The notes below the pieces were generated by a model that was given only the letters and a program-made list of their open reading frames with translations, was not told the DNA's origin and searched no databases. Made by a program: the position numbers and the translations under genes. 64,000 nt of DNA from an uncultured Spirochaetales bacterium (lineage in GTDB: Bacteria > Spirochaetota > Spirochaetia > CAYLLE01), in contig CAYLLE010000003.1 in NCBI GenBank assembly GCA_964384485.1, forward strand, positions 9,125 through 73,124, in the 5' to 3' direction. Below are positions 36,698 through 53,383 of the stretch, one piece after another; the first letter of the stretch is position 1; every line of letters begins with the position of its first letter.

Positions 36698-38230
36698 CTA
36701 CATAAGGAAACGGATAGCGAGCCGAATAGACTGCTTTTCCTTTTCTTCCTGGAGCGGTTCTATCGATAAAATGTACTCCTCTCCCTGGACAAATCTGAAG
36801 GAGATATCCGCGTCAAGACCTAGTTTATCCATTGTACTGGAGAGTATATTCCGGGCTTTATCTTTAATTCGGAGAATTACGGGTGTTTCCTCCTGGGTAG
36901 GAAAAGAAATGAGGTAGGTACCGGTTTCGGGCGGGATAAAATGTACCTCCGTTCCCTCAGGCGGGAGTCCGATAGGAATATCCGCCTCCTTTGTCATCAG
37001 TACAGGTGGTCCCGTTTCTGATCCCGAATCAGGCAGCTCGTATTCTTCAGGACCAAGACAGAAGAGCGTCCCGCTTTCGGTTCCCACATATACGAGTTCT
37101 CCTTCCGGCACGGGCGCGGTTGATGGAACCCCGGTGATCTTTGTTTCCCAAACCAAGCTGCCGTCGGCCGGGCTGAGACACATGATCCTGCCGTCCCGGA
37201 GAGAAACATAGATATTCCCGTCTGAAAGAAGAACCGTTCCGACAGCGGAAGCCTCAAGTTCCTTCTCCCACAATACCGATCCGCTGTTCCCGTTAAGAGA
37301 CCGGATCATCCGCTCCGAACTGTATATGATACGGTTCAAACCGGAAACCGGAGGTATTCCGGACCGCTCCTGGAATTTTTTGTCCCAAAGTATATCTCCG
37401 GATATTCCTTCCAGGAGCGCCGTTCTGCCGTCAAACCAGACCACACAGACCCGGCCGTCAGCTCCGGTGATGCCGGTCACCGGAACATTTCCGTTCTCCA
37501 CGGAGAAAAGCTCTTCCCCGCTCTCCGCGTCGTTCCCCCGTATCGTGCCGCTCCCTGATCCGGTAATTACATTTCCGCTTACCATTACAGGACCCGCCGT
37601 AATTCCTTCTCCGAAAGTAACCTCCCACATCGGCTCCCCCTGCTGAACAGAAAGTGCGTGAACAGTTCCGTGGGTTGTCCCGGTAAATACGGCGGAATCG
37701 GTTATTACCGCGGAAGCCGCGGGAAATCCCCGCCCTTTAAACTGCCAGAGAAGTTCCCCGGTTAGATCGGAAACAGCATACAAAGATCCGTCGGCACTGC
37801 CGAAACATATCAGGTTGTTCCGCTTAACCGGAGGCGCAAGAATAACTCCTCCGGTACGGAAGATCCACCGGGGGCGTTCCGCGCCGGCGGACAGGGCGTA
37901 CAGGGTAAAGTCGTAGGAACTGCCGTAAACTGTGCCGTCAAAAACCGCGGGATCGGCTCCTATCCTGGCATCGGCTGAATAGGACCAGACAATTCTTGAA
38001 GGAACAGCCGCGGCTTCCGCCTGAAAAAAACGGTGATATTGTGAACCGCCGTTATCGGAGCCGGAAACATCACGGTCCGGACCGGGGTCCGGATCCTGGT
38101 CCCTGCCGATCTGTTCATTCTGAACCGTCTGCTGTTCCCTGTCCTCCCTGCTGCCGTCGCCGCAGGAGAAAACAGAAAAAACAAGAACCGCCAGAAACAA
38201 CCGCAGGAGTAGAAATATTCTATTCGGCAT
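36698..38230 (-). CDS. PQQ-like beta-propeller repeat lipoprotein with a C-terminal beta-sandwich-like domain
   Basis: Lipobox VFSVFSCG. Repeated motifs of the type G.LYA(L/V)s...G...W.. (LYALSAGAERPRWIF, LYAVSDLTGELLWQF, VHALSVQQGEPMWEV, and others). Confidence 0.75.
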   Translation of the reverse strand: MPNRIFLLLRLFLAVLVFSVFSCGDGSREDREQQTVQNEQIGRDQDPDPGPDRDVSGSDNGGSQYHRFFQAEAAAVPSRIVWSYSADARIGADPAVFDGTVYGSSYDFTLYALSAGAERPRWIFRTGGVILAPPVKRNNLICFGSADGSLYAVSDLTGELLWQFKGRGFPAASAVITDSAVFTGTTHGTVHALSVQQGEPMWEVTFGEGITAGPVMVSGNVITGSGSGTIRGNDAESGEELFSVENGNVPVTGITGADGRVCVVWFDGRTALLEGISGDILWDKKFQERSGIPPVSGLNRIIYSSERMIRSLNGNSGSVLWEKELEASAVGTVLLSDGNIYVSLRDGRIMCLSPADGSLVWETKITGVPSTAPVPEGELVYVGTESGTLFCLGPEEYELPDSGSETGPPVLMTKEADIPIGLPPEGTEVHFIPPETGTYLISFPTQEETPVILRIKDKARNILSSTMDKLGLDADISFRFVQGEEYILSIEPLQEEKEKQSIRLAIRFLM

Positions 38231-40616
38231 ACTGTTCTCCGTACGTATATAACAGCTTTTCGGAAGCCGTTATCAGCCCCCGGCGCTCCAACTCTTCTAT
38301 CAATATAGATGTCCTTTCAGTTCCAGCGTTATCTTCCGCCTTACCAAGGAAACGGATCAGCCAATGGCTCCGGAGTTCTAAATAATCCGGCCAGGAAAGG
38401 TTTCCTGAATCAAGTTCATCATTAAGAGTATTCAATAAACCGGTTGAAGCAGTTATGGCGTCCTTATCTTCGGATAAAATCGTTTCACCTTGGCGAGCAA
38501 GGCGGTGCAGATTGATCCGGGACTGATATTCATAAATCTCACGGATCGTTTCAATTCCCCGGCTCATATCTTTTATAAGAGCAGAAACCGCCGGGATGAG
38601 ACCTGTGTCACTGTCTTCGCCAAGCCAAATTGATGTCAGTACATATACTGCTTCATATAGAGTAAGATCCATGGAAGCAAGCAGCCTGATTATCTCGAGA
38701 GACTCCCGGGTTCTCCCGGAGATAACTGAGGAAGACGGCATCATTATTCCATTCAAAGCCGGAATCATTACGTCCCGGTAAATCCGGTCAAACTGAATAA
38801 GACCCCGGGAGACATACTCGTTCCTTCGGACAGGGTCTTCCGTCTCCAGCCCCAGCTTAATCCAAGGGAAAATCACATCAGTGAGGAGCTGACCAGTTTC
38901 ATCGTATTGAGATTCCACTGTTTCCGGCAGAGCACCGGATAAATATTCTGCCGAGTTTACCGGAGACTGGGTCAAATATGCCAGATTGTTCCAGCCTACT
39001 ACACCTTGTCCGTGCAGTTTGCCCCATTCTTCCCCGTCAAGTGTTATGGACGGCGGCTTTGTCTGCTGCGAAAATACTTTATATACAATATCTACCGACT
39101 CGGTGAAATCAAACTCTGTTTTAATCATCAAATTCCGAACGGTATAATCCGGAAACGAATCCCGGGGCAGAAATAATGCCGTGGACACTGAACCTGCCCG
39201 TTTCTCAAGTTCCCGTACGGTTTTCGCGTAAAACCTGGAAAAGAGCTGCTCCAGCTTTTCAGTCAGGTAGTTATTTATCTTTTTCCTGTTTTCTATTTTT
39301 ATTTCCAAACCCCAGCGGCCGGACAGCTGTCCGGATACAAGGACATGGGAGGCCCGGTTATTCAGAAAACGGAGAATGAGCCTTTCTGTTTCCAGGGCAG
39401 TACCGGTTTCGCCCTCGGCCTGCAGAAGAATGGAATTTAGTATGCTCAGTCCCTCGGTAACATACGATGATGTCCTGTTGTAGGCGGCGACCGCTTCGTT
39501 CGAATCACGGGCCCGGGCAATCTCCCTCTGCAGTGACTGTTCCTCGGTATCAAGACAGATGTCACCGCCGCTCTGCATTTTAATGAGCAGTCCCAAAACC
39601 TTTTCCAGATCAAGATGGAAATATTCTAGGGCGCGGGAAAAAATGATCCGGCCGGTATAGGTAAGTGAACTGAAACCGTAGACGCTCCGTGTCCAAAAAT
39701 GCCTGGTGATATTGTCGTATTCCATGAGCGCGCAAAACAGAACAGGATCAATGTTCTCGATAGTATAGAGGCAATTCCGGTACCCCGAAGCTGTCTCAGC
39801 CGGTATCTCCCCGGGGGAAACCATAAAGAAAGGAAGGGTCGCGACCACTGCCTGGGGCAAATATTCGTTAAGCATGGACTGTGCTTCATACAGAGTCCGG
39901 TACCAGTTAACGGACTTTTCCAGTTCCTCTTTTATTTCCGAAGAACCGGCAAGGGGTATCCGGTTAAGCAAGGACCGGTGGAATTCCATGCCTCTAAAGA
40001 GCCCCTCAAGTCCTCTAACCATGCTCCATAACCGCCACCGTTCAAGACCTTCCCGGTACGGGGGCACCTCCCGAAGATGTTTTTTTCCTTCAATATCCTC
40101 TACAGTCATAAGGTCGAGCAGCTCGTTTATGTATTCTTGCCGGATTTCGGGAGAATTTTCTCTTAAAAGACGGCTTATCTTTCTGTAGAAATTGTTAAAC
40201 CGTTCAACAGGTAACGCGGAATCAAGAAAAGCGCTGTTAATACGCTCCTGTACGGAGCTTTCAAAGCCGAAAGACGGTACTTTTACCGTGTAAACCGCTT
40301 CCCGAAGGTAATCCGTGACTTCCTGGATTTCTCTCCGGATATCAGGACTGCCTGTCATAATTCGCTCTATTTCACGGGCAGTCCGCCGGGCTATTTCCCT
40401 GACTGTTCCGGTCCCTGGAGAAGCAAGTTCTTCATCCGTTTTTTGAAGAAGAGCCTCAATGGAATCCGTAAGATGGGAATTATATTCTTTTTCTTTTAGA
40501 TTCAGGATGGTCAAACGATCGGCAAATTCATCGGCTGTACCAGACTGATTTTGGCATATTCCATTCACGGCAGCTATGAACATAAATAGCCAAACGAAAT
40601 AAAAAGTCTTTTTCAT
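38220..40616 (-). CDS. Hypothetical 798-aa secreted protein
   Basis: Signal peptide MKKTFYFVWLFMFIAAVNG. Mostly helical-looking, no recognisable motif. Overlaps the next gene by 11 nt. Confidence 0.5.
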   Translation of the reverse strand: MKKTFYFVWLFMFIAAVNGICQNQSGTADEFADRLTILNLKEKEYNSHLTDSIEALLQKTDEELASPGTGTVREIARRTAREIERIMTGSPDIRREIQEVTDYLREAVYTVKVPSFGFESSVQERINSAFLDSALPVERFNNFYRKISRLLRENSPEIRQEYINELLDLMTVEDIEGKKHLREVPPYREGLERWRLWSMVRGLEGLFRGMEFHRSLLNRIPLAGSSEIKEELEKSVNWYRTLYEAQSMLNEYLPQAVVATLPFFMVSPGEIPAETASGYRNCLYTIENIDPVLFCALMEYDNITRHFWTRSVYGFSSLTYTGRIIFSRALEYFHLDLEKVLGLLIKMQSGGDICLDTEEQSLQREIARARDSNEAVAAYNRTSSYVTEGLSILNSILLQAEGETGTALETERLILRFLNNRASHVLVSGQLSGRWGLEIKIENRKKINNYLTEKLEQLFSRFYAKTVRELEKRAGSVSTALFLPRDSFPDYTVRNLMIKTEFDFTESVDIVYKVFSQQTKPPSITLDGEEWGKLHGQGVVGWNNLAYLTQSPVNSAEYLSGALPETVESQYDETGQLLTDVIFPWIKLGLETEDPVRRNEYVSRGLIQFDRIYRDVMIPALNGIMMPSSSVISGRTRESLEIIRLLASMDLTLYEAVYVLTSIWLGEDSDTGLIPAVSALIKDMSRGIETIREIYEYQSRINLHRLARQGETILSEDKDAITASTGLLNTLNDELDSGNLSWPDYLELRSHWLIRFLGKAEDNAGTERTSILIEELERRGLITASEKLLYTYGEQYAE

Positions 40617-40713: not shown

Positions 40714-42921
40714 ATGGCCGATCTTTTCAGCAATGCCGAAACCGTTAACAGTGAACCTCTCGCGGCCCGAATGCGGCCAAGGACGCCGGATGAGTACATT
40801 GGACAGGAGCATATTATGGCTCCGGGAAGGCTGCTCCGCAGGGCAATTCAGGCTGATCAGCTCTCTTCCGTAATATTCTACGGTCCTCCCGGAACAGGGA
40901 AAACCACCTTGGCACGGGTGATAGCAAACTCGACCCGGAGCCATTTTATCGCTCTGAACGCTGTTTTGGGAGGCGTAAAGGAAGTACGCCGGGCAATTGA
41001 GCAGGCTGAGGAGCACCGCACCTACTACAGCAGGAGGACCATTCTTTTTGTGGATGAAGTCCACCGCTGGAACAAAGCACAGCAGGACGCGCTGCTGCCA
41101 TGGGTTGAAAACGGTACGATCATCCTTATCGGTGCCACCACGGAAAATCCTTTCTTTGAGGTGAACCGGGCTTTAGTTTCACGCAGCAGGATCTTCCAGC
41201 TGAAGCCGCTTTCACGGGAAAACATGGAGTCGATCATGGAAACCGCGCTGGATGACTCTGAACGCGGATACGGTAAATACGATATCGTCATTGACCGGGA
41301 CGCGGCACAACATCTGATTAAAACTGCCGATGGTGACGCCCGCAGTCTCCTCAACGCCCTTGAGCTTGCCGTAGAAACAACCCCTTCAGTCTTTCCCCCT
41401 CCGGAGGGAGAACAGATCCGGATTGATTTAAATACGGCTGAAGAAAGTATTCAGAAAAAGGCGGTGCTTTACGATAAGGACGGTGATTATCATTTTGACA
41501 CAATCAGCGCTTTTATTAAATCGCTCCGGGGTTCCGACCCCGACGCTTCCCTTTATTGGCTGGCAAAAATGATTCATGCCGGGGAGGACCCAAGATTTCT
41601 TTTCCGGCGAATGCTTATAATGGCTTGTGAAGATGTTGGACCGGCCGATCCTTCCGCGGTCATGATTGTTGAAGCATGCGCCGCGGCATTCGACAGAGTC
41701 GGTCTTCCGGAAGGACAGTTCCACCTCGCCCACGCCGCAGTCTATCTGTCCACCTGTCCAAAATCCAACTCCCTGCTCGGCTACTTTGACGCGCGAAAGG
41801 CTGTGGAGGAGGAGGAACAAGGAGAGGTTCCTTCTCATCTGAAAGACGGAAGCAGGGACAAGGGACTCGGACACGGTGCCGGGTACATCTATCCCCATTC
41901 CTACCGGGACCACTGGGCAGCCCAGCCTTATCTCCCGCAGAACATGAGGGGAAAACTTTTTTATAATCCCTCGGAACAGGGATACGAACGGGAAATCCGT
42001 AATCAGGTACTAAAACGCCGGGAGCTGCAGCTCTCTGCCATGGGAGAAGCCGATCAGGACGAAGTACTGACCGTATCTCCCGAAGACAGAAAAAGGGAAT
42101 TATGGTTTAAACGGATATCGGAGACCCGGATCGCCGCGTTAAACGCTGTAAGGAGCAGGATCTTTTCCGGAAACCTGATTCAACGGCACCATCGGGTGCT
42201 GGTTTCTGAACGGGGAAGCCCGTTCTTGGTATGGGAATCCTTGAGGAGGACTCCGGAGGGACTGACTGCCTACCTCAATCCGGAGCAGGAAAACCTTGAT
42301 GAAGTCGGAGAGTTTACCGCCGCGATGGCGTATCCGGAAAAACCGGTGCTCCTAAAGGGGGACGCGGAAAATATGAGTAAAATAGAAGGGCTGGCTCCGG
42401 ACACGCTGTTTGAACACTTCATCGGCAGAAACATACTTCCGGACCGGTCACACTTTTCCGGTTTTTTCACGAACCTTACCGGACTTCTTGAGCCGTCCGG
42501 GCTGTGTTTTCTTGCTCAAACTGTTCCCGGCAAAGCCCGTCCGATATCGGAACTCCTTTCGGAAGCCGGGGCGGAAAAAAGACTCACGGAGCGTCTTGAG
42601 GAAATCGACAGCAGGCTCCGGTCCGGCTCGGGTTCACCGCTTTTAAACTGGGACGGCAGGGTGATGACCGAAGCCGCGGTTTCCGCCGGATTCACCGGAT
42701 GTACCGAAACCTATGAAACATTCACCGAACCCCGGATCTTCAGGGAACGGGAAATATTGCACTGGTTCAGCCGGGAGGAGGGAATGAATTACGGCGCGCT
42801 CTTAAAAGAACTGCATCCCGGTAATTACCCGTCCATGATAGAAGAAATTGTCCGAGCTCTCAAAGAAACGGAGTTCCAATGGCCCAGAACGTACCTCTTC
42901 TTTACCGCTTGTCGGCCGTAA
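40714..42921 (+). CDS. rarA: Replication-associated recombination protein A (AAA+ RarA/MgsA) fused to a ~290-aa C-terminal domain of unknown function
   Basis: LAARMRPRTPDEYIGQEHI, Walker A GPPGTGKTTLA, FVDEVHRWNKAQQDALLP, GATTENP, GDARSLLNALE, HAGEDPRF, GYIYPHSY. RarA homology ends near aa 445 of 735. Confidence 0.85.
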   Translation: MADLFSNAETVNSEPLAARMRPRTPDEYIGQEHIMAPGRLLRRAIQADQLSSVIFYGPPGTGKTTLARVIANSTRSHFIALNAVLGGVKEVRRAIEQAEEHRTYYSRRTILFVDEVHRWNKAQQDALLPWVENGTIILIGATTENPFFEVNRALVSRSRIFQLKPLSRENMESIMETALDDSERGYGKYDIVIDRDAAQHLIKTADGDARSLLNALELAVETTPSVFPPPEGEQIRIDLNTAEESIQKKAVLYDKDGDYHFDTISAFIKSLRGSDPDASLYWLAKMIHAGEDPRFLFRRMLIMACEDVGPADPSAVMIVEACAAAFDRVGLPEGQFHLAHAAVYLSTCPKSNSLLGYFDARKAVEEEEQGEVPSHLKDGSRDKGLGHGAGYIYPHSYRDHWAAQPYLPQNMRGKLFYNPSEQGYEREIRNQVLKRRELQLSAMGEADQDEVLTVSPEDRKRELWFKRISETRIAALNAVRSRIFSGNLIQRHHRVLVSERGSPFLVWESLRRTPEGLTAYLNPEQENLDEVGEFTAAMAYPEKPVLLKGDAENMSKIEGLAPDTLFEHFIGRNILPDRSHFSGFFTNLTGLLEPSGLCFLAQTVPGKARPISELLSEAGAEKRLTERLEEIDSRLRSGSGSPLLNWDGRVMTEAAVSAGFTGCTETYETFTEPRIFREREILHWFSREEGMNYGALLKELHPGNYPSMIEEIVRALKETEFQWPRTYLFFTACRP

Positions 42922-44002
42922 GGAATCCCTCATAAACCCAGCCCATAGAACCGTCCGGAGACGATACCCTGTACCAGTACCCGGTATTTTTTCCCCAGGT
43001 TTTTTTCCGCGCAGTTCGATAGGAAAAAGTAAGCCCTGTGTTTCCCCGGATTTTTTCTATAAGCGCCGCGTATTCCGAGGGACAGGACCACAAAGGGAGG
43101 TAGTATAAAATCGATTTACCGGTTCCGGGTGTATAAATTACCGGTTCTCCGTCTCCATTGAATACGGAAGGAGAATCCGTGGAGACTACCCGGAAACCGA
43201 GAAACTCATCATGATACCGTGCCGAATTCCGGGAGCTGTACCGGCACTTCACTCCCAGCCGGCTCCTGCTGTGCATGTACGTCCATGCTCCTCTGACCGA
43301 ATATTGAGTCTGTTCCGGACCGAGGATGCTCAGCGGATTTTGTACAGGGGAATGCCGATAGAAGGCCGGATGATACCGGTCCATCACCCATTCCTGAACA
43401 TTTCCGTAACAGCCCGAGACATTGAACGGGCTAACGTCGCCGGTGATCTTATCCACCGGAAACACATGATCCCGGTATGTAAGGTTCGTTTCCTGTCCCA
43501 GGATCCGGCTGTCCCACTTTCTGAATTCTTCTCCCCACGGATAAAGAAAATTCTCTCCCCCCAAGGCTGCATATTCCCATTCCGCTTCCGTAGGAAGCCG
43601 GAAAAATCTCCCCGTTTTCTCAGAGAGCCACCGGCAGTATTCCAGGCAGTCCGCGCGGGTTATATTCACAACCGGCTTTTTGGAATTGCTGCCATGCAGA
43701 CGCCAGGTATCGCTGTCGTTAAACTTCTCCGGCTCGGTGGTATATCCGGTTTCGCCGATAAAGGCAGCAAACTGGCTGTTGGTTATTTCATACCTGGATA
43801 CAGCAAAGGAGGTTAGTTTGACCCGGTGGGAAAGATAGGACAACCGGGGTATACCGGTAGGTTCTCCCCCGGAACGGATGTACTGTTCCAGGGCTGTGTC
43901 ACCCATCATGAAGGCGCCGCCGTCTATGTTGATCATTTCCGGCAGATCCAGCGCGGAAAGGACTGCCGGGAGCAAAATCATAAAATACCATATTTTTTTC
44001 AT
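42902..44002 (-). CDS. Secreted FGE-sulfatase (SUMF1/formylglycine-generating-enzyme fold) domain protein with a C-terminal SH3b-like domain
   Basis: Signal peptide MKKIWYFMILLPAVLSA. GGAFMMGD, FAVSRYEITNSQFAAF, KPVVNITRADCLEYCRWLS, LPTEAEWEYAA, GNVQEWVMD. Tail YWYRVSSPDGSMGWVYEGFL. Confidence 0.8.
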   Translation of the reverse strand: MKKIWYFMILLPAVLSALDLPEMINIDGGAFMMGDTALEQYIRSGGEPTGIPRLSYLSHRVKLTSFAVSRYEITNSQFAAFIGETGYTTEPEKFNDSDTWRLHGSNSKKPVVNITRADCLEYCRWLSEKTGRFFRLPTEAEWEYAALGGENFLYPWGEEFRKWDSRILGQETNLTYRDHVFPVDKITGDVSPFNVSGCYGNVQEWVMDRYHPAFYRHSPVQNPLSILGPEQTQYSVRGAWTYMHSRSRLGVKCRYSSRNSARYHDEFLGFRVVSTDSPSVFNGDGEPVIYTPGTGKSILYYLPLWSCPSEYAALIEKIRGNTGLTFSYRTARKKTWGKNTGYWYRVSSPDGSMGWVYEGFLTADKR

Positions 44003-44034
44003 CTTATTCTTCTCCTTATACTGTTTAATTTTCG

Positions 44035-45759
44035 CTACTTTATTTTTTCCGCGGTAAAAATCTCCGCGGCCAAAAGATCAGAAGGATCAACCGTCAAGCG
44101 GTTTCTTACACTGGTATCAAAAACAACCAGATTTCCGTTTTCGTCAACATCCACGATGTTCACCCAATGGACGTACGTATTAGTGGCATCGTTCAGTGCG
44201 CAGGTGGTAATTTTGACATGGACATATACTTCCACCGATGTATCTTTATCCAATTCACATATTTTCTTGTATATTTTATCACCTTTTGTTTCAACCCGTT
44301 CCACGGATATTCCGATGTCTTCAGCCGCGGCCGCGATCAGAAGTTTAGCACCTTCTGTCGACAACGCTCCTCCGCCGCCGCAGTACAGTTTATTCTTTAA
44401 AGCCAGATCGTTCAGGCTTTTCGGAGTTTCATCCTCTTCCCCGATGATCGCATTAGCAATATTGGTAATCCCGGTAAGTTTACACCCCTCCTTTCCGATG
44501 GTTGTATCCTCCGTTCCCAGCTTGCAGTCCCGCCACCGTTTATCCTGCTGCCGCATGCCTTCCAGAATGCCCATAACAGTAAGGCCAAAAGGATCGGTGA
44601 AGTTAACCGGATCGCCGCCGGCGTAAATATACCAGTTGGTTCCGTCCCTGGCGGGATCCGGGGAAAAGAATCTTCCCGCCCTGGCGGAATAGATCCGGTG
44701 TCCCATATCGTAAAGTTCCGACTTCGGCAGATACAGACTGCCGCGGAATCCAGGAACAGGCAAAAAAGATTGATCAAGATCGCTGCCGGTCTGCCCGAAT
44801 AAATCATAACAGATTATGTCATTGTGCGATGATTCTGACTCCGATACAGCCCTTACGGTGTTTGTACCGTCGGCAACAAGATATCTTGGACCGGTCCCCT
44901 TGCGGGAAAGATGAAGCAGAGATCCCGGAGCCGGCAGCGCGGTAAAGCTCTTTTCTCCCTGTTTTCTTCCGTCTGACGGCAAGTACCGGTACCGGTACGG
45001 GACGGAATTCTCTTCCTTCCCCGTCCCGCCGGGTGTACCTGTCAGTCCCGATATCTCAGTAATGCTTCCCGATACCGGCAAACCGGACACCGGATCCCGG
45101 AACATCCAAAAAGAGCCTTCCGTTTCCGCTTCGCGGTATACTCCTCCCGACAGCCGCCCGAAGGGATCGTAGGAATAGGATACGGAGCAGGAACCGGTCT
45201 CTACGTTTACTATTTTACCGTCCGGTGAATATTGAAAATACTTGTCTCCGGTGCTTGAGATATTTCCGTTTTCGTAGGTCACTGGAATATTTCCCGCCTG
45301 GATCAACCGGGATTTCTTATCGTACCGGTAGACGATATCTCCAAGGGGTGTGGCTTTCTGAAGACGGTTTCCGTCCATGTCGTAGGTGTATTCAACTTTC
45401 CAGGCCCGGTTCATCCGCATGTAGTCTCTGGGGAGCATGAATCCCATGGAAACGCATGCATCGCTTATTTCATCAACACCCGGAGCATCAGCGGGATAAA
45501 AATTCCAATCCGGTTCATGGTACGGAATCAGCCCCCAACTTTCCAATTCTTTTCGGTTGATTTTATCCAGCCATGTACTCTCGGGATAAAACACCTCGGT
45601 GATTCTGCCTCCGCTGTACCGGTAGTATGTTACTTCTCCCTGATGGTTTACCGCCGCCCGTTTTCTGCCGCACGGGTCATACAGATATGCTTCCCCGAAA
45701 ACAATACCGGATTTTCCCCGGGATTCTTCCGAACAGACAATTCCTTTTAACCGGCTGCC
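44035..45759 (-). CDS. RHS/YD-repeat toxin, C-terminal portion: last YD repeats, RHS core end, and a 181-aa variable toxin tip. Same frame as 45760..49917, separated only by a TAA.
   Basis: My translation of 45595..45759 continues the YD repeats. Core-end motif IYSARAGRFFSPDP..YIYAGGDPVNFTDPFGL (DPxGL at aa 334..338 of the ORF-track protein), followed by an unrelated tip. Confidence 0.8.
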   Translation of the reverse strand, partial: GSRLKGIVCSEESRGKSGIVFGEAYLYDPCGRKRAAVNHQGEVTYYRYSGGRITEVFYPESTWLDKINRKELESWGLIPYHEPDWNFYPADAPGVDEISDACVSMGFMLPRDYMRMNRAWKVEYTYDMDGNRLQKATPLGDIVYRYDKKSRLIQAGNIPVTYENGNISSTGDKYFQYSPDGKIVNVETGSCSVSYSYDPFGRLSGGVYREAETEGSFWMFRDPVSGLPVSGSITEISGLTGTPGGTGKEENSVPYRYRYLPSDGRKQGEKSFTALPAPGSLLHLSRKGTGPRYLVADGTNTVRAVSESESSHNDIICYDLFGQTGSDLDQSFLPVPGFRGSLYLPKSELYDMGHRIYSARAGRFFSPDPARDGTNWYIYAGGDPVNFTDPFGLTVMGILEGMRQQDKRWRDCKLGTEDTTIGKEGCKLTGITNIANAIIGEEDETPKSLNDLALKNKLYCGGGGALSTEGAKLLIAAAAEDIGISVERVETKGDKIYKKICELDKDTSVEVYVHVKITTCALNDATNTYVHWVNIVDVDENGNLVVFDTSVRNRLTVDPSDLLAAEIFTAEKIK

Positions 45760-48700
45760 TTAATATATCCGTTCAACCGAAATACCGTTACCGTATCTCC
45801 GGAGGATTTCCCTGCCTGCCTTATCGTACCGGAAAGAAACGGTACCGGTCTCATCTTCCGCCGCAACAAGGTTTCCCCGCCGATCGTACCGGTATCCGAT
45901 TTCTCTTCCGGTTCCGGTACTGATCCAGGTCCGGTTTCCTCCGGGACCGTATCCAAATCCGTACTCCATACCCGAACCGTTCTCCGTCAGACCCGTAATT
46001 CTCCCCGCCTTATCGTACGCCAAAAAATACAGGCCGTCCCGGCTCGCCGCTTCCCGGAGATATCCATCCTGACCGTACCGGTATGAATAGAGCACCGTTT
46101 CTCCCTGCCGGATACCGGTAAGCCGGTTCATGCAGTCGTAACTGTAGGAGATGGATTTTCCGTCCGGAAAAGATACTTCGGCCGGGTTCCCCCGGATATC
46201 GTAACGGTATTCAGCTTCATAAGCGGCCGCCTCCTTTATAACCCGGCTTTGCGCGTCATACCGGAATACATATTCCCGTTCCTCAGGGGTAATGATGCTG
46301 ATACAGTTGCCTCCGGCATCGTACGTAAAGGTTTGGGCCGGTCCTTCATCGACCGCGAGGCTGACACAGTCGCCGGCCGGAGAGTACCCGTAGGTGATCC
46401 GGCTTCCGCAGCTGTCGGTCCGGGTTACAACGTTTCCTCCGGGACCGTAGGCGTAACGGATCTCCGCGCCCGAGGGATCACGCCTTACGGTCATCCTGCG
46501 GGCGGCATCGTATTCCCGGGTCCAGGTATTCCCCTCCGGGTCGGTCTCTGAAGCGGGATTACCATTTTTATCATATCCATAACTCCAGTCGTTTCCTTCT
46601 TCATCCCGGTACCCGGTGAGTCTCCGGGCACCGTCATAGGTGAAAGATACACTGCTTCCATCTGCTTTGCTGATCTTTTCCAGATGCCCTTCCGCTGTGT
46701 AGGTGTATTTTACCGTACCGAGTACCCGGTCATGCCGTTCGGTCAGTCTTCCTAATAAGTCATACCGGTACGATATTTCGTTCTTCCCTTCCGTGGTGAT
46801 CCCGGTAATATCACCTGCCGGGTTGTACCGGTACTGCCGGGTGCTTCCGTCTGGATGAAGGACTTCGGTGATTCGGGGTCCGTCCCTCCGGTACTCACGG
46901 CGGAACCCCTCCTGGTCGGTCCGGGACACCAGCCTGCCCATCCCATCGTATCCGAATCTGACCGTCCCGCCGTCCGGATAAACCCGTTTTACGCACTTGC
47001 CGTGATCTCCGTAGTATGACCGGGTAATTCCGCCGAGGGGATTTTCGTACCGTATACAGTTCCCCGATCTATATTCCCAGACGGAGACACCTCCCCGGGA
47101 ATTCTCTTTCCGAATTAGACGGCCCGACTTATCATACCCGTATCCGGTAATACCTCCGCCCGGATCGGTAACCTCGGTGACCCTGCCGCAGCCGTCATAC
47201 CGGAACCTTCTGATCCCGCCTGCGGAAAGCAGCCTTTCTTCGGTACAGTTCCCCCGGCAGTCGTACTCGAATTCGGTAACACACCCGTTTTCCGTTTTCC
47301 GGATAATCCTGCCGCAGCCGTTGTACTGAAGCTCCAGACTAATGCCCGAACCTTCCGCCCGTACCTGATTGTGCCGCGTGTCGTATCCGAATGTCACGGT
47401 TGATCCGTTTTTTCCGGTATACGAAATCATGTCGCCTCTTAGGCTGTAACTCCATTTTTCCGTTCCTCCGGCAGGATCAACAGCGCCGGTTAGTCTGCCC
47501 AGAGAATCATACACGTAGGTGTATCTGCCGCCGTACGGATTTACATATCCGGTACAGTGCCCGTAATCATCATAGAAGAACGCTTCCCGGCCTCCGCTGT
47601 CATAAAGAATCTTTTCCAATTGTCCATCAGGGCCGTACCGGTATTCAGTCAACCGGTTTTCTTCATCGGTGATTGTCTTTATGTTCCCGTTTCGGTCACG
47701 GGAAACCGTTAAACGGCCCCGCCACGAATTAACTTCTTCCGGAAACGCTGTAGCGCCGTAATCGAAATACACAGTCCGGCCTTGTAAGTCGGTTGCCCGG
47801 ATCATCCTCCCTTCCGTGTCAAATTCTCTTTCAAGGATTTCACCGGACGGCAGATAAACCGCGGTACGGTTATTCCGGGAATCATATGTAAACGCGGTGA
47901 CATTGCCGCAGCCGTCCCGCAGCCGGATTAAATTACCCCGGCTGTCGTATTCCCGGGCAGCTTCCGTGCCGTCATCGTACCGTCTGCGAATTTCCCGGCC
48001 CCGGTTATCGAAATAGTACCGGATCCGGTTACCGCATTTATCGGTAAAACAGGCCGATCCGTCCGCTTCGGAATACTCGTACGTTTCGCGGTACCCTTCC
48101 TCGTCGGTGACCCTCCGGACGCGCCGGGGTTCATGGGCGGTGTATTCATAGGTGATGGAAGAACCGTCTTCCCGGGAGATTTGTGTTAGATAGGGTCCGG
48201 TATAGGAAAATAATACGGTCACTCCCCCAGGATCAGTTACCGAGGTGAGTCGATGTTCCGGATCGTAACCATATATGTAAGCCCTGCCTCCCGGTCCGGA
48301 AACTTCTGTTATAAGTCCGAATTTATTCTTTTTTATCCGGCACCGGTTTCCGAAGGGGTCGGTTATTTCTTCCAGTTCTCCCGAAGCACCGTATGTATAG
48401 AGGTACGCTTTACCGGTGCTTTTTCTGTCGGCCGTCAGTCTTCCGAATTTGTCAAAATATTCCCGCGCAGTCTGTTTTTTTTTCAGGGTGATGGTCCCGT
48501 CTTCCAAAATTATTCCGGTTTCAGCACCGCTCTGACTCCGCAGAACTGTTTCTCCGGGGAGGAATCTGGCAATCCCCTCGCCTTTCGGCTCTGCGGATAA
48601 ATCTACATCTCCTAAATAGTAGATAACCGGAGTTCCGGCAGCGTCAATATAGGTTATGGTCCCGGTACCGGTCCATGAGAGTGACGGGTCAGAACCGGAA

Positions 48701-49917
48701 GGAAGGGTATACCGGTTGAGCTGCCCGATATAGCGGGAGTAGTTCTCCTCCTGGGTAAACCGGCTGATGGATTCGTCAGTTTCACTTCTCAAGTCATCTA
48801 TTACAGCGAGACGGCAGGTTGACCCGGATAGCAAATCCCTGTTCTCCCCCGCCGCTGTAAGCCGCCGAAAGATTTCGGATTTATACAATCCGAACACCTC
48901 AATCTCACTCAGGAGCCGCTCGTTCACCGGCGGCCGGGTTTCGGCAGCTATTATCGTCTCAAGCGCTTCTATTGTTTCTTCTATCTGTTCCAACCGGTCG
49001 CGGTAAAACGAGATAATATCATCAATGACGGTAAAACCGCGGGAATACATACCGAAGGCATCGTCTTTCTTCCGATCAAGTTCTTCCGACAGTAATTCAG
49101 AAAGCTCCTTCTTTTGCCCGCTTCCCGGATCATGGCCGAAAATGATGCGGCGGTCTCCACCGAATGCCCAGGACTCGCCAAACGAAATTCCAGTCCGGAT
49201 AAAGCTGCCGTAACTCCGCAGTACAGGTATTCCCCGTCCCTCCGTTACGTCTTCCTGACTGAACCAGAGCTCACCGGTTGAAACACGCACCGGATCACCG
49301 GTCAGGGGAGAGTTATACCCGTCACCCCTTTCCTCTGCATGTTCTATGGAATCAAGAAGAAGCTCATCCATTTCCCTGCACTGATCGAGGAAATCTTCGT
49401 ACAGATCAACACTTTCCTTCTCCGCTGTCTTCATTTTTTCGTCAAGCTCTTCCGGATCCGGGAATCCCGCTTCACCGGGATCATCTTCAAGGAAAAGGGA
49501 GATTTCGGACGGAGGTGTACCTTCGGAAATAAATACCGTTTCCCATTCTGCCGGATAACTTTTTACAACCGGAGGATTATATTCAACCCATTCAACGATC
49601 TCCTCGTATTCGGCATAGTACCCCCAGGTAATATGAAATATTCCGCCTTCTGTATACCAGAAGTATTCGTATCCCTCCTGTTCAAGGTTCAGTAAGTATT
49701 CATCACTGAATCCGCCGGGGTCGCTTGTTGTATCCTTTCCCGCCGTGACCCAGCCTTCTTTTATCACCGTTGTAACCCATTCACCTTCTATCACCTCTTC
49801 ATATGCTTCCTTAATCAGTATTTCGATGGGATATCCGCCGTCCCCCGCTCCCGCGGTCAGCGGATTGAACAAAAAATAGGAAAGTATTCCGCAGATAAAC
49901 AAGTAATAAAACCGCAT
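45760..49917 (-). CDS. RHS/YD-repeat protein, N-terminal 1385 codons: signal peptide, acidic N-domain, YD-repeat shell. Ends at an in-frame TAA.
   Basis: MRFYYLFICGILSYFLFNPLTAGA signal peptide, GDPVRVSTGELW plug motif, and dozens of YxYDxxGRL-type repeats. RBS AAGGAGGA lies 4 nt upstream. Confidence 0.85.
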   Translation of the reverse strand: MRFYYLFICGILSYFLFNPLTAGAGDGGYPIEILIKEAYEEVIEGEWVTTVIKEGWVTAGKDTTSDPGGFSDEYLLNLEQEGYEYFWYTEGGIFHITWGYYAEYEEIVEWVEYNPPVVKSYPAEWETVFISEGTPPSEISLFLEDDPGEAGFPDPEELDEKMKTAEKESVDLYEDFLDQCREMDELLLDSIEHAEERGDGYNSPLTGDPVRVSTGELWFSQEDVTEGRGIPVLRSYGSFIRTGISFGESWAFGGDRRIIFGHDPGSGQKKELSELLSEELDRKKDDAFGMYSRGFTVIDDIISFYRDRLEQIEETIEALETIIAAETRPPVNERLLSEIEVFGLYKSEIFRRLTAAGENRDLLSGSTCRLAVIDDLRSETDESISRFTQEENYSRYIGQLNRYTLPSGSDPSLSWTGTGTITYIDAAGTPVIYYLGDVDLSAEPKGEGIARFLPGETVLRSQSGAETGIILEDGTITLKKKQTAREYFDKFGRLTADRKSTGKAYLYTYGASGELEEITDPFGNRCRIKKNKFGLITEVSGPGGRAYIYGYDPEHRLTSVTDPGGVTVLFSYTGPYLTQISREDGSSITYEYTAHEPRRVRRVTDEEGYRETYEYSEADGSACFTDKCGNRIRYYFDNRGREIRRRYDDGTEAAREYDSRGNLIRLRDGCGNVTAFTYDSRNNRTAVYLPSGEILEREFDTEGRMIRATDLQGRTVYFDYGATAFPEEVNSWRGRLTVSRDRNGNIKTITDEENRLTEYRYGPDGQLEKILYDSGGREAFFYDDYGHCTGYVNPYGGRYTYVYDSLGRLTGAVDPAGGTEKWSYSLRGDMISYTGKNGSTVTFGYDTRHNQVRAEGSGISLELQYNGCGRIIRKTENGCVTEFEYDCRGNCTEERLLSAGGIRRFRYDGCGRVTEVTDPGGGITGYGYDKSGRLIRKENSRGGVSVWEYRSGNCIRYENPLGGITRSYYGDHGKCVKRVYPDGGTVRFGYDGMGRLVSRTDQEGFRREYRRDGPRITEVLHPDGSTRQYRYNPAGDITGITTEGKNEISYRYDLLGRLTERHDRVLGTVKYTYTAEGHLEKISKADGSSVSFTYDGARRLTGYRDEEGNDWSYGYDKNGNPASETDPEGNTWTREYDAARRMTVRRDPSGAEIRYAYGPGGNVVTRTDSCGSRITYGYSPAGDCVSLAVDEGPAQTFTYDAGGNCISIITPEEREYVFRYDAQSRVIKEAAAYEAEYRYDIRGNPAEVSFPDGKSISYSYDCMNRLTGIRQGETVLYSYRYGQDGYLREAASRDGLYFLAYDKAGRITGLTENGSGMEYGFGYGPGGNRTWISTGTGREIGYRYDRRGNLVAAEDETGTVSFRYDKAGREILRRYGNGISVERIY

Positions 49918-49926
49918 AAATCCTCC

Positions 49927-51258
49927 TTATTCATACCAGATACGGTACAGAAAACCGGGTCCCTCGGGATAACAGGGAACCCATTCTGAATCACTCACAA
50001 AAGCCATCGGAATCTCCACGGGAAAGTTTCTGAAGTACTCCGGATAATGCCGGGCGGGAAATCCTGAAGGATCAAGGGGTACAAGGTGTACCGAAAGCAA
50101 GCCAAGGGGACCAGGCATCTCATGATGGGCGCCGCCGAAAAGGAGAGCCCTGTCCAATACCCGGAGGAGTTCATCCGTTTTTGGTTTGATTTCGGGGAAT
50201 TCCTCGGCCAAAAGGGAGCATAGATGCTTGATGTCAAGATTCAGATCCCCGGGGATTTCATAAAATCCCGCGGTTCGCCGGAACAGTACCGTCCGGATCC
50301 GGTCTCGGGCGTCCGGCTCGGCGCAGATGCTGTAGAGGAGACCGGCAAGCTCATTAAACCGGACTGCCAGCTCATCAATCACAGCTAAATCAAAAACACC
50401 GTACGCGAATCCCGGATAGGAGCCGTACCGTTCCAGGCATACTTCACCGGCAAGAACTCCCGCCGATTCGGCACTGATCTCTCCGGAACCGCTTAATCTG
50501 GAAAAATATTCACCGTAGGGAATACCTTCTTCGGGCATTCGGCCTTCCGGGCCGGCCATTACCCGGGAGATATTCCGGAGCTCGTAAGCGGTTTCGATCA
50601 TGCCGGCATAACTCGCGTCGAAGACAATCAGGTCCGGACCGATTCCCGCCAAGGCCCGGGATATTTCCGGAATATCAAGCCCGTCTCCCCGGGCGGCAAC
50701 ATCGGGACAGTAGGTTTTTTCTCCCCCGGTTACTCCCGCCGGTCTTATTCCCGATCCGTGACCCCAGAGAATCAGTCCGTATTCTTCGGCGGGAAATGTT
50801 TCCCGGCCGTACCGCAGAAACTCCCGGAGTACAATAGAGGATCCAAGATTCAGTTCCGTGCCGGGGGGACAGAAGGGGGCATTCCGGACCGTTTCGAGTC
50901 CGTCCGGTGTTTTCAGAAGAAGTTCCGTCGATCCCGGAAACCTTCTGTCCGATAGAATGAGTATGGTAATTTGTTCCGGCTGAATTGCCGCGTTTTCTAT
51001 TTCGTCCAAATCCGCGGCAGCCTGGTCTTCCAAATTGTTATCGCCGCTCATGTAGATAAGGATGGTCATTTCGGGTATCTCTTCCGGCTCTTCTTCGGGC
51101 GGAGGTTCTTCATCGGGTTCTTCCGGCTCCGGTTCCGCCGGATCTTCCGGAAGCGGCTCAGTATCAGCGGGCAGTTCTGTCCGGTCCAAAATCCTGACGC
51201 CGCAGGAAATACATACTGCCGCGATAAGGATGACCGCAATAAGGGCGAGTTTATTCAT
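49927..51258 (-). CDS. Clostripain-like (peptidase C11, clan CD) lipoprotein with Ser at the catalytic-Cys position
   Basis: Lipobox AAVCISCG, then a Pro/Glu linker. ILIYMSGDNNL, LILWGHGSG (catalytic His context), LIVFDASYAGM where the family normally has FDAC. Confidence 0.65.
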   Translation of the reverse strand: MNKLALIAVILIAAVCISCGVRILDRTELPADTEPLPEDPAEPEPEEPDEEPPPEEEPEEIPEMTILIYMSGDNNLEDQAAADLDEIENAAIQPEQITILILSDRRFPGSTELLLKTPDGLETVRNAPFCPPGTELNLGSSIVLREFLRYGRETFPAEEYGLILWGHGSGIRPAGVTGGEKTYCPDVAARGDGLDIPEISRALAGIGPDLIVFDASYAGMIETAYELRNISRVMAGPEGRMPEEGIPYGEYFSRLSGSGEISAESAGVLAGEVCLERYGSYPGFAYGVFDLAVIDELAVRFNELAGLLYSICAEPDARDRIRTVLFRRTAGFYEIPGDLNLDIKHLCSLLAEEFPEIKPKTDELLRVLDRALLFGGAHHEMPGPLGLLSVHLVPLDPSGFPARHYPEYFRNFPVEIPMAFVSDSEWVPCYPEGPGFLYRIWYE

Positions 51259-51700
51259 GGACCGGCTCCCGCAGGGTGATCATTCCGGGGTATATACACA
51301 ATCCGAAAATATCGTCCCAGGTATCTTCTCCAAAACAGATCCGGGAAATTCTAAATTGATCGACCGTGGTTTCTGAGAGTATTTCACCGGTATATTCCAA
51401 CGGAATAATTCCGGTAAACTCACTCTCCGGCGGTATCGACCCGCTGTAGCTGAACTTTCTAGACAGATGTAAATCCGGTACATGTTCTTCTTTGCCGGGA
51501 TACAGATAAAAGGAACCGGAAAAACCGGTAATGGTACGGGAATCCCGATTGCGGATTGTATAGGAAATGAACGCCTGATCCGTTTCAATCAATGATGCCT
51601 TTGAAAATACCAGAGGGGGGTTCGGGACATAACCGCACCCGGAGAACATCACAGAGAGCAGTCCGCAGAAAAGACTCAAAACGGCTTTCTTCCGGAACAT
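51251..51700 (-). CDS. Hypothetical small lipoprotein, first gene of the RHS operon
   Basis: MFRKKAVLSLFCGLLSVMFSGCG lipobox. RBS AAGGAGG. 8-nt overlap with the C11-like gene. Confidence 0.6.
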   Translation of the reverse strand: MFRKKAVLSLFCGLLSVMFSGCGYVPNPPLVFSKASLIETDQAFISYTIRNRDSRTITGFSGSFYLYPGKEEHVPDLHLSRKFSYSGSIPPESEFTGIIPLEYTGEILSETTVDQFRISRICFGEDTWDDIFGLCIYPGMITLREPVHE

Positions 51701-51936: not shown

Positions 51937-52602
51937 TTAAGTGGTTTTCTGCTCCAGCCCCGTCAGGATAAACCGGATAAACTGCCGGGTTTCGTTTTTC
52001 AGATCTTCCGGCGGAACAGGCAATGAGTATAATTCCCGGTCCAGTACATCCCGGTATGAAAAGTTATACTTATCACCAAGGTAATCTTCGAATTCTATGG
52101 ATAGATGGATAATGAGCAGAGCCGCTGTTTCAATATCCAATCCGTCTCTTAATTTTCCCCTTTCCTGGGCCCGGGCAAGAACCTGGCGCATCATATCATT
52201 TGCCTGCCCCAGGAGTCCGGCTGATATATCCGAAAGCACGGGATCGGAACGTTCCCTGGCGTTCCTGTAGAGAATACCGCTGGTGCGGGGATGACTCAGG
52301 TTGTATTCCATACTGCTGTAAAAGAGGACTTCAAGCACATCATACAGGGAGTCTTCCTCCGGTTTCAGGAGGGGGGCAAGATAAGCCAATTTTTCCCGCG
52401 CCGCGTATTCCACGAGATAGGAATAAAGATCCTTTTTGTCCCGGAAGTACTGATATAGACTCCCCTTCGGGATCTCCGCGTCCTGAACAATCTTGTCGAG
52501 AACCACCGAGGGATAACTGTATTTGGCAAACTCTATCAGCGCCGCGGATATTATCCTTTCTTTCTTATCTTCAGGTAAATGGAAAAATGTTTCTGTGGGC
52601 AT
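51937..52602 (-). CDS. TetR-family transcriptional regulator
   Basis: N-terminal HTH region KKERIISAALIEFAKYSYPSVVLDKIVQDAEIPKGSLYQYFRDKKDLY. Start set at ATG 52602 (MPTETFF), parallel to the paralog's MPKETFI. Confidence 0.85.
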   Translation of the reverse strand: MPTETFFHLPEDKKERIISAALIEFAKYSYPSVVLDKIVQDAEIPKGSLYQYFRDKKDLYSYLVEYAAREKLAYLAPLLKPEEDSLYDVLEVLFYSSMEYNLSHPRTSGILYRNARERSDPVLSDISAGLLGQANDMMRQVLARAQERGKLRDGLDIETAALLIIHLSIEFEDYLGDKYNFSYRDVLDRELYSLPVPPEDLKNETRQFIRFILTGLEQKTT

Positions 52603-52744
52603 ACCGGGAATATTACAAAAAAATGACCGAAAAGTCACTTTTTTTTTGAAAATTATTGACAGCAGCGGCGGAATACATTAGATTGTGACCATACAGTCAT
52701 ATGACCGATAAGTCATATGACTCAAAGGTCATAGAGGAAGGATT
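52603..52744. promoter_or_regulatory. Divergent TetR promoter/operator region
   Basis: Perfect 10-bp palindromes GTCATATGAC at 52696..52705 and 52712..52721, plus half-sites (ATGAC 52624, GTCAC 52634, GTGAC 52685, GTCATA 52728). Plus-strand TTGACA (52656)-17-TAGATT (52679). Minus-strand GTGACT-17-TAATAT ends 8 nt before ATG 52602. Confidence 0.6.
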
Positions 52745-53383
52745 ATGCCGAAAGAGACATTCATAAACTTAGATGAGGGCAAAAAGACACGAATCCGGGA
52801 CGCCGCGGCGGCCGAGTTCGCGGCCCGGGGTTACAAGGGAGCTTCCGTGGGCAGGATTGCCCGGGAAGCTGGAGTCGCGAAGGGCAGTATGTATCAGTAC
52901 TTCGAAAACAAGGAAGCCTTGTTCAATTATTTGATCGACTCCTCCATGGAGATGAAACTCGCCTTTTTCCGCTCCCGGGGAACGGAGATAACCGGAGATA
53001 ATTTTTTCAAACGGCTCCGGAGTCTGATAATTCTCGGTCTTGAGTTCGCGAGACTTCATCCTGACCTGCAGCAGATCGGAGAGAGCCTCCTGAAGAAAGA
53101 TGTCCTCCCCGCCGCGGTTTCGGAGCGGATCGATGCAAAATTGAAAGTCAAGAGTGATGAGATTTATCGGACAATGATCCTGTCCGGAATTGAGGAAGGA
53201 GATATCCGGAAAGATATCGACCCCGCCCTCGCCGCCTTCGCCGTAAATTCGGTGATGAAGGGCATGGGCGAGATGATCATGGGTGAACGGTTATCTGATG
53301 AAGAGATCAAATCCCTAAGCGGTTCGGTAACGGATTTTATCCGCAGGGGGATAGAAAAGGAAAAGGAGAAAATTGATGATTAA
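52745..53383 (+). CDS. TetR-family transcriptional regulator, first gene of the ABC-2 exporter operon
   Basis: KKTRIRDAAAAEFAARGYKGASVGRIAREAGVAKGSMYQYFENKEALF. RBS GAGGAAGG. Confidence 0.88.
   Translation: MPKETFINLDEGKKTRIRDAAAAEFAARGYKGASVGRIAREAGVAKGSMYQYFENKEALFNYLIDSSMEMKLAFFRSRGTEITGDNFFKRLRSLIILGLEFARLHPDLQQIGESLLKKDVLPAAVSERIDAKLKVKSDEIYRTMILSGIEEGDIRKDIDPALAAFAVNSVMKGMGEMIMGERLSDEEIKSLSGSVTDFIRRGIEKEKEKIDD

Follow-up and report, generated by a model that had tools for sequence, protein, structure and literature searches.

A signal-peptide Rhs toxin of an uncultured Spirochaetales bacterium and its cassette of lipoprotein partners

To our knowledge, the Rhs toxins of diderm bacteria are understood almost entirely as cargo of type VI secretion systems (T6SS), and we know of no account of how an Rhs protein with a signal peptide leaves a diderm cell. 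WapA of Bacillus subtilis is a Sec-dependent RHS toxin of the Gram-positives, which works without T6SS. Related Sec-dependent RHS toxins of Gram-positives have been described (PMC12704120; PMC3482391, Table 1), and Zhang et al. 2012 (PMC3482391) list “T2SS/Sec-dependent” RHS toxins (T2SS, type II secretion system) with no signature neighborhood genes given. Here, we analyze an RHS gene and its three operon partners in a 64-kb stretch of DNA from an uncultured Spirochaetales bacterium (contig CAYLLE010000003.1; the whole stretch of 64,000 nucleotides is called the window). The RHS protein is an Rhs polymorphic toxin with a previously undescribed set of partners, and its export route is probably T2SS-like. 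In the window the copy is atypical, as it stands apart from the secretion genes, its clostripain-like partner is predicted to be inactive and the RHS frame is interrupted. The features of the locus are the following.

51251..51700, minus strand: small lipoprotein of a DUF5780-like family, 149 aa; the gene overlaps the C11 gene by 8 nt
49927..51258, minus strand: clostripain-like (C11) lipoprotein, 443 aa (PF03415)
44035..49917, minus strand: RHS/YD-repeat protein, 1,960 codons (RHS_repeat and Rhs core)
45760..45762, minus strand: in-frame TAA, codon 1386 of the RHS frame, read from the window DNA
44038..44580, minus strand: C-terminal tip of the RHS, 181 aa, predicted papain-fold cysteine peptidase (AlphaFold model and alignment)
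44482-44484 and 44167-44169, minus strand: predicted catalytic tip residues C33 and H138, with also Q11 and D155 (alignment)
42902..44002, minus strand: exported FGE-like plus SH3b protein (FGE-SH3), 366 aa (PF03781; SH3_3 weak)

An earlier note on this DNA had described four packed minus-strand genes, and open reading frames (ORFs) were found at exactly its coordinates, following each other 5'→3' with the 8-nt overlap, a 9-nt gap and a 32-nt gap. Its assignments of a lipoprotein, a clostripain, an RHS and an FGE-SH3 protein agree with Pfam and NCBIfam, the SH3_3 match only weakly so. Export signals were judged throughout by eye and with a hydropathy heuristic, without a dedicated predictor; by these means a signal-like segment opens all four products, with a Cys in lipobox position in the first two, and the hydrophobic N-terminal segment of the RHS is consistent with the Sec signal peptide that the note had read there.

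The cassette RHS shares with the T6SS Rhs effectors of Proteobacteria a YD shell, a PxxxxDPxGL core, a GDPV...TGE plug, exchangeable tips and a downstream slot for a cognate gene. It differs from them in that its N-terminus is a cleavable Sec-type signal rather than a PAAR/VgrG-binding one, that its relatives are linked to genes for secretin, GspE, GspF and GspG and to two lipoproteins, and that the candidate immunity proteins carry export signals themselves. The hallmarks of Rhs polymorphic toxins are present, namely a YD array, a core with a cleavage motif and a tip that varies across the family. The RHS lacks the marks of a T6SS Rhs effector: the N-terminus is a signal peptide, and Pfam scans of the 43 ORFs of the window found no VgrG, Hcp, PAAR, SpvB, TcA or TcB domain, the earlier note having seen no VgrG, PAAR, Hcp or TcB/TcA-like gene; a TcB/SpvB partner and a TcA translocator were likewise absent from the window and from the operons of the relatives. 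One feature of a type II substrate was found, the signal-like N-terminus (heuristic). Linkage to secretion genes was seen in 34 RHS-bearing loci and in three distant ones (L092-L094; loci bear L numbers), but neither in the window nor in its closest relatives. Like WapA, the protein is a signal-peptide RHS polymorphic toxin needing no T6SS. Its producers, unlike that of WapA, are diderm and have an outer membrane also to cross, and the cassette differs from the WapA class in having conserved signature neighbors (the DUF5780-like lipoprotein, C11 and the T2SS-like genes).

We found no description of a cassette of T2SS-like genes, C11 and RHS in the literature searched, the coverage of which was incomplete. 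A genome comparison of treponemes reports RHS genes and “complete secretion systems: 0” (PMC8049484, Table 2). For a phylum reported without complete dedicated secretion systems (PMC8049484), a gene order that, in dozens of Treponema and Spirochaetales species, ties signal-peptide Rhs proteins to a secretin/ATPase/pseudopilin set and two lipoproteins provides a testable secretion hypothesis.

A conserved spirochete cassette and its T2SS-like neighborhood

A scan with a C11 alignment, run over a single genome for each GTDB species, gave 80 loci, mostly from Treponema and Spirochaetales. C11 was directly followed by an RHS gene in 41 of the 80, the RHS proteins measuring 1,690–2,114 aa and the gaps ranging from -70 to +200 nt, and 43 of 44 C11-linked RHS proteins (including those of the window, L006 and L011) had an N-terminal hydrophobic segment by the heuristic. 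A jackhmmer search placed a homolog of the small lipoprotein directly upstream of C11 in almost every spirochete locus and in none of the nonspirochete loci. In 47 of the 80 loci, 34 of them also with an RHS, the same strand carries a GspG pseudopilin gene some 3 kb upstream. The operon of the cultured Treponema bryantii NK4A124 displays the full order, reading Secretin, T2SSE, T2SSF, T2SSG, two unknown genes, a CarboxypepD_reg-like gene (weak match), lipoprotein, C11, RHS and an exported protein. In distant relatives (L092-L094), RHS genes with the tip family of the window come after T2SSE/F/G, a CarboxypepD_reg gene, a lipoprotein homolog (E 3e-7 and 6e-6, in two of the three loci) and a C11 homolog (E 1e-12 to 1e-23). 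A DUF5780-like lipoprotein, a C11 lipoprotein and a signal-peptide RHS of ~1,950-2,100 aa in a row thus form a conserved spirochete cassette that usually follows a secretin-GspE-GspF-GspG gene set. The earlier note had proposed comparing gene neighborhoods as a check, and the outcome favors its operon, the lipoprotein and C11 genes being syntenic with RHS elsewhere. The same spirochete-type cassette of GspG, CarboxypepD_reg-like gene, lipoprotein, C11 and RHS was seen on a contig labeled Eubacteriales (L028, JAZNER010000011.1); the contig may be misbinned or the metagenome-assembled genome (MAG) mislabeled.

In the lineage of the window, the three cassette genes and FGE-SH3 are separated from the secretion genes. 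Two contigs with this arrangement, one from a microbial mat (L006) and one of 142 kb from the Joint Genome Institute (JGI; L096), have the same order of TetR, TetR, lipoprotein, C11, RHS and FGE-SH3, with identities of 44% for the lipoprotein, 50% for C11, 46% over the full length of an intact 1,960-aa RHS and 51% for FGE-SH3; the convergent MgsA-type gene and genes beyond it match as well. Two closer relatives, L095 and L010, have FGE-SH3 24–27 nt after an RHS with the same tip. Across the orthologous loci that keep all four genes, identities are 44–52%. Compared with L096, the cytoplasmic neighbors in the window are 61–75% identical and the exported proteins, the four operon products among them, 40–51%. 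Judged from these sequences, the locus is inherited and conserved and not an island.

The small lipoprotein has the lipobox MFSG↓C, read from its translation, and gave nothing in Pfam, NCBIfam or PDB sequence searches on its own. Its family profile is more telling, with 6 of 16 members matching Pfam DUF5780 and a match to PDB 5TTA, a “putative exported protein” (E 1.7e-7). C11 has the lipobox CIS↓C, and the ortholog keeps TS↓C. Its fold is that of the C11 peptidases (Peptidase_C11 PF03415, E 4.6e-33; C11 structures in PDB matched at E 6e-15), and the catalytic His–Cys dyad is broken: the His is kept (WGHGS, residue 167, 50758-50760), and the Cys is replaced by Ser (FDASY, residue 216, 50611-50613), which aligns on FDACY of 6n9j and 6mzo. 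The replacement was also seen in the family alignment and in a hidden Markov model alignment of 84 homologs. The L006 ortholog has both His → Asn and Cys → Ser, whereas the dyad is intact in 37 of 44 RHS-linked C11 homologs; the Cys is also lost in L017, L053, L056 and L065.

By its residues the window C11 is probably a pseudo-protease, and the clostripain homolog seems to have turned into a pseudo-enzyme on more than one occasion. As the catalytic Cys is Ser, cysteine-protease processing by this C11 is unlikely, and we downgraded the explanation that it processes the RHS here. The otherwise good conservation of the protein argues for a retained, noncatalytic role. The earlier note had taken the lipoprotein pair for an export or processing module of a Sec-dependent RHS. 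The partner triad of the 41 loci, mostly at the end of a T2SS-like operon, speaks for such a module; processing, at least by this C11, is the part that does not stand well.

Fragipain, a C11 peptidase, activates the Bacteroides fragilis toxin. Like toxin-maturing C11 enzymes such as fragipain (C11 structures include those of PmC11 and clostripain), the C11 of the cassette is a lipoprotein-type clostripain homolog encoded beside a secreted toxin. Unlike them, it has Ser in place of the nucleophile Cys in the window, with His → Asn in addition in an ortholog, and in the cassette it is always paired with the DUF5780-like lipoprotein, usually inside a T2SS-like operon. In L022, L023 and L029 (about 9400-11300), a longer C11 ORF also matches the small-lipoprotein profile, which suggests a fusion with a second DUF5780-like domain.

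The toxin tip and the interrupted RHS frame

The RHS protein matches RHS_repeat (PF05593, E 2.7e-103, 15 stretches; TIGR01643, E 5e-72) and, above the cut-off, the Rhs-associated core (TIGR03696, E 6e-16), which contains the PxxxxDPxGL self-cleavage motif and ends in DPFGL at 44581-44595; the end of the core sequence reads ...GRFFSPDPARDGTNWYIYAGGDPVNFTDPFGL. From the N-terminus, the parts are a signal peptide (about 49849-49917; cleavage read as ...PLTAGA↓GD), a lineage-specific N-terminal domain, a plug motif GDPVRVSTGEL, a coiled-coil stretch, the YD shell, the Rhs core and the toxin tip.

The 181-aa tip after DPFGL had no match in Pfam or NCBIfam and no significant sequence match in PDB (best E 0.057). 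A word-indexed search of 5.8 billion proteins returned a single homolog, whereas an exhaustive HMMER search returned 45 relatives, mostly the C-termini of signal-peptide RHS-like proteins of 1,800-1,980 aa. In an alignment of 24 tip sequences, C33 and H138 never vary, and Q11 and D155 are kept in 90% or more. With this alignment, AlphaFold gave a tip model with a pLDDT of 94.4, as against 40 with a two-sequence alignment. Foldseek matched the model to Alr0975 (phytochelatin-synthase-like, E 3e-5), the Citrobacter rodentium CdiA-CT of 8ssm (E 4e-5), the toxin of 9l5u (E 1e-4) and staphopain, with probability 1.0 for all four; as the TM-scores are about 0.5, the papain assignment is one of fold level only. 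An hhalign comparison also shows homology of the window tip to the papain-like tips of RHS proteins from Treponema (probability 98.3%, E 1.9e-14). The model and the alignment thus predict that the tip is a papain-fold cysteine peptidase or amidase, of a new papain-fold tip family without a Pfam model, and it likely acts in the cell envelope. It resembles 9l5u (a DUF4150/PAAR-like effector) and the CdiA-CT/CdiI pair 8ssm in being a papain-like Cys/His tip that ends a polymorphic toxin, but the identities are only 9–12% and the TM-scores 0.42–0.59, a match at fold level only; the delivery also differs, RHS with Sec here against T6SS or contact-dependent inhibition there, and the candidate for immunity here is the exported FGE-SH3.

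Across species the tips are swapped, and at least five unrelated classes were found among C11-linked RHS proteins. The Pfam classes comprise Peptidase_M23, VanY/M15_4, YkuD and, weakly, NlpC/P60, and a large group is papain-like. Among 10 tips scanned against Pfam, 4 matched cell-wall-enzyme families and none a nuclease family; the tips across species seem mostly to be cell-wall enzymes, and gut, rumen and oral treponemes may compete using such cell-wall-degrading Rhs tips. Within the clade of the window, the tip is the best-conserved part of the RHS (63% identity vs 46% overall), which is unusual for Rhs.

That the RHS of most relatives is linked to genes for a secretin, an ATPase and a pseudopilin could be read differently, with the RHS serving not as a toxin but in the structure or regulation of a type IV filament machine. 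Such a role has been proposed for a Myxococcus YD-repeat protein and for Bd0109, an RHS-like protein from the hit locus of Bdellovibrio and a proposed regulator of pilus extrusion and retraction (PMC3818213), and these precedents, together with a distant clade (L011, L092-L094) that conserves one tip family without an adjoining immunity gene, would fit it. Like Bd0109, the cassette RHS is an RHS/YD-repeat protein genetically tied to type IV filament machinery; unlike it, it has the canonical Rhs core with the cleavage motif and swappable enzymatic tips. We regard the filament role as very improbable, since tips that are swapped beyond the DPxGL motif, that are recognizable lytic or peptidase domains (M23, VanY, YkuD, NlpC/P60, papain-like) and that are often followed by genes for orphan exported proteins make up the signature of polymorphic toxins.

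In the window, the RHS reading frame is broken; in the orthologs it is intact. The TAA takes the place of a conserved Gln codon, with ATA TAT TAA GGC in the window against ATA TAT CAG GGA in L095, and Gln is found at the position also in L006 (codon CAG) and L096. Recoding was considered and excluded, as TAA is the commonest ordinary stop in the window, ending 23 of 41 genes. After the TAA, the frame continues for 574 open codons up to the true stop, with no further stop or frameshift, and these are 74% identical to L095 (83% in the tip), so any inactivation must be very recent. In a sister MAG of the same species (GCA_046542195.1), two contigs end at window positions 45819 and 45669, so that 149 nt around the TAA are missing between them. 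Only short, imperfect repeats were present, none of which explains the contig break, and the site may be polymorphic in the population. In the JGI metagenome contigs, an exact-pattern scan found no other copy of the TAA site, and a scan with the tip alignment gave 106 pattern matches, none of which was confirmed as a copy of the tip. Because the TAA breaks the frame at a conserved Gln codon, the RHS copy here is a very recent pseudogene, a strain variant or population polymorphism, or a sequencing error.

These data raise the question of whether the cassette here is a decaying remnant, with the RHS a pseudogene, C11 already inactive and no toxin system operating. The replacement of a conserved Gln codon by what is a normal stop in this genome points that way, as do the Cys → Ser change of C11, the detachment of the cassette from T2SS-like genes and the absence of the 1,385-aa product from the records as a called protein. 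The open and little-diverged frame behind the TAA would nevertheless place any inactivation very recently, and the break in the sister assembly exactly across the TAA would fit a site that is polymorphic in the population. The C11, lipoprotein and FGE genes, moreover, are intact and diverge at the rate of the region's other exported proteins, which argues for continued selection. On balance, we consider it unlikely that the cassette is a remnant.

The exported protein after the RHS gene and the proposed system

The gene boundaries leave no room for a small immunity ORF behind the tip: the gap between the RHS and FGE-SH3 genes is 32 nt, and the convergent gene of an MgsA-type AAA protein overlaps the 3' end of the FGE-SH3 gene by 20 nt. 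FGE-SH3 is thus, as the earlier note had observed, all that the slot 3' of the tip holds. The note had linked a missing immunity gene to a toxin switched off by the TAA; this explanation is refuted by the orthologs with an intact 1,960-aa RHS, which share the identical four-gene layout.

FGE-SH3 begins with a signal peptide (cleavage read as ...VLSA↓LD) and contains an FGE-sulfatase domain (PF03781, E 2.2e-39; about 43184-43945) and an SH3b domain (about 42920-43084). The SH3_3 match (E 0.003) lies below the Pfam cut-off, and SH3_3 is on record for FGE-SH3 homologs of 32–35% identity (P0060-P0062). The FGE domain matches human and bacterial FGE structures at E 1e-19. It has the FGE fold without the catalytic cysteine pair: at neither of the positions aligned with the catalytic cysteines of human FGE, which we take to be C336 and C341, does FGE-SH3 have Cys, the first being aligned with His. 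The absence of these cysteines suggests that FGE-SH3 is a binding module rather than an oxidase. We also considered whether an FGE enzyme modifies the catalytic Cys of the tip and rejected it, since FGE-SH3 lacks the FGE cysteines and the tip has no CxPxR motif.

FGE-SH3 follows the same tip in four related lineages, those of the window, L006/L096, L010 and L095; in the latter three, its orthologs start 13–27 nt after the RHS stop. Full-length FGE plus SH3 homologs of more than 50% identity are all in this syntenic clade; FGE-like homologs are very common in other contexts. When gene starts from -20 to +225 nt relative to the RHS stop were counted, an exported protein on the same strand followed the RHS in about 20 of about 34 evaluable loci (137–366 aa, with an N-terminal hydrophobic segment), and 9 of 10 such proteins scanned belonged to no Pfam family. 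Closely related tips share related downstream proteins, a co-variation that is confounded by shared ancestry. The exported proteins after YkuD or YkuD-like tips (L021 17027-17908, L025, L074 and L033) are mutually similar, those of L021 and L033 having a Pfam F5/8 type C “NADase_transloc” domain, which suggests that one immunity-like family serves this tip class. Its place behind the tip, its export and the parallel with this slot in other cassettes make FGE-SH3 the best candidate for a periplasmic immunity protein of the tip, a role we consider plausible; immunity may here have recruited an FGE-like protein.

The whole is best explained, and in our view somewhat probably so, by the cluster being the cargo end of a spirochete-specific RHS toxin system that works without T6SS. 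The RHS would cross the inner membrane through Sec, fold in the periplasm into a YD shell enclosing the tip and cleave itself at the canonical DPxGL core, and a T2SS-like machine, presumably encoded elsewhere in the genome, would carry it across the outer membrane. The two lipoproteins would be system-specific accessory factors, with C11 acting as a protease in the copies that keep the His/Cys dyad and as a noncatalytic adaptor here, where Cys is Ser, and the exported, noncatalytic FGE-SH3 would neutralize the tip in the periplasm. A broader proposal, which we make tentatively, is that spirochetes possess a T2SS-like nanomachine of minimal make-up (secretin, GspE, GspF, GspG and a handful of unknown proteins) that is dedicated to encapsulated RHS cargo, which C11 and the DUF5780 lipoprotein load or mature and against which exported orphans, here FGE-SH3, provide periplasmic immunity. 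If true, a T2SS-like nanomachine would be a previously undescribed route of Rhs delivery in diderms without T6SS.

Several observations weigh against the toxin system as outlined. T2SS-like genes are found neither in the 64-kb window nor adjoining the cassette in L006/L096 and the nearest relatives, and the use of such a machine here is therefore extrapolated. The T2SS-like operon of L022, L023 and L029 ends at C11 without an RHS, which makes the lipoproteins a core part of the operon, whose last gene, the RHS, is frequent but optional; the lipoproteins may thus serve the T2SS-like machine in general rather than the RHS. With the local C11 catalytically impaired and a stop in the RHS, the cassette may be nonfunctional here. 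Among 8 matching tip-partner pairs, 3 involve a conserved neighboring gene for a membrane protein that is not an immunity candidate. The case for an obligatory immunity partner is weakened by about 14 loci, and by the same-tip clade of L011 and L092-L094, in which no exported gene follows the RHS. Finally, synteny of the whole region confounds the pairing of FGE-SH3 and tip: the four lineages are syntenic over >20 kb, and the pairing could reflect inheritance alone.

The last two points also fit a different role of FGE-SH3, namely that of a neighboring or accessory envelope protein (e.g., a peptidoglycan-binding factor) that stays beside the RHS because the gene order was inherited. Protection of the producer would then come about in another way, by the shell hiding the tip in transit or by absence of the tip's target from the producer. 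Spirochete peptidoglycan is of the ornithine type. Synteny of the whole 20-kb neighborhood between the window, L095 and L096 is what such a protein would show; same-tip RHS genes in the distant clade are followed by an NDK or cytidylate-kinase-like gene (L011, L092-L094) instead of FGE-SH3 and, as in the 14 or so other cassettes, no exported protein. The abundance of FGE-like homologs elsewhere and the size of FGE-SH3, at 366 aa larger than most proteins of the slot, also agree with it. An accessory role accounts less well for the tight same-strand gaps of 32, 13, 24 and 27 nt in the four lineages, for a slot that holds exported orphan proteins in most cassettes and for the export of FGE-SH3 to the very compartment that the tip passes through, and the loss of the FGE catalytic cysteines fits a role in binding. 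We regard the accessory role as possible but somewhat doubtful, and retain periplasmic immunity as the plausible function of FGE-SH3.

In the high-GC clade of L011, L092 and L093, the gene after the RHS is ndk, followed in L092 and L093 by a gene for a peptidase M3; the tip of this clade ends in a conserved ...RYDVYAxSxCRxY motif, and no immunity-like gene adjoins it. A gene for a CobW-like GTPase flanks the RHS slot in many Treponema, and, together with the operons without RHS, this suggests that the RHS and its partner act as one unit that can be inserted at a set site of the chromosome.

Surroundings of the locus

The neighbors of the four genes in the window are housekeeping, signaling and transport genes, and 7 ORFs have no Pfam match. 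A scan for promoters and terminators gave counts equal to the shuffle expectation. Upstream of the operon lies a putative regulator:

51937..52638, minus strand: TetR-family gene (TetR_N, E 1.8e-8), 236 nt upstream of the lipoprotein gene

This gene keeps its position upstream in L004, L006 and L096, with 63% identity, and is a possible regulator of the cassette. Another, divergent TetR gene (52745-53383) stands at the head of an operon for an ABC-2 transporter. At 36698-40616 on the minus strand, a gene for a 798-aa protein without a Pfam match overlaps that of a PQQ/BamB-like beta-propeller; the pair is conserved in L095 and L096 and fast evolving, at 40–46% identity vs 69% for MgsA. A 165-aa ORF at 8080-8577 on the plus strand covers positions 15–179 of the 236 of the EAL profile and may be a truncated or misstarted EAL gene.

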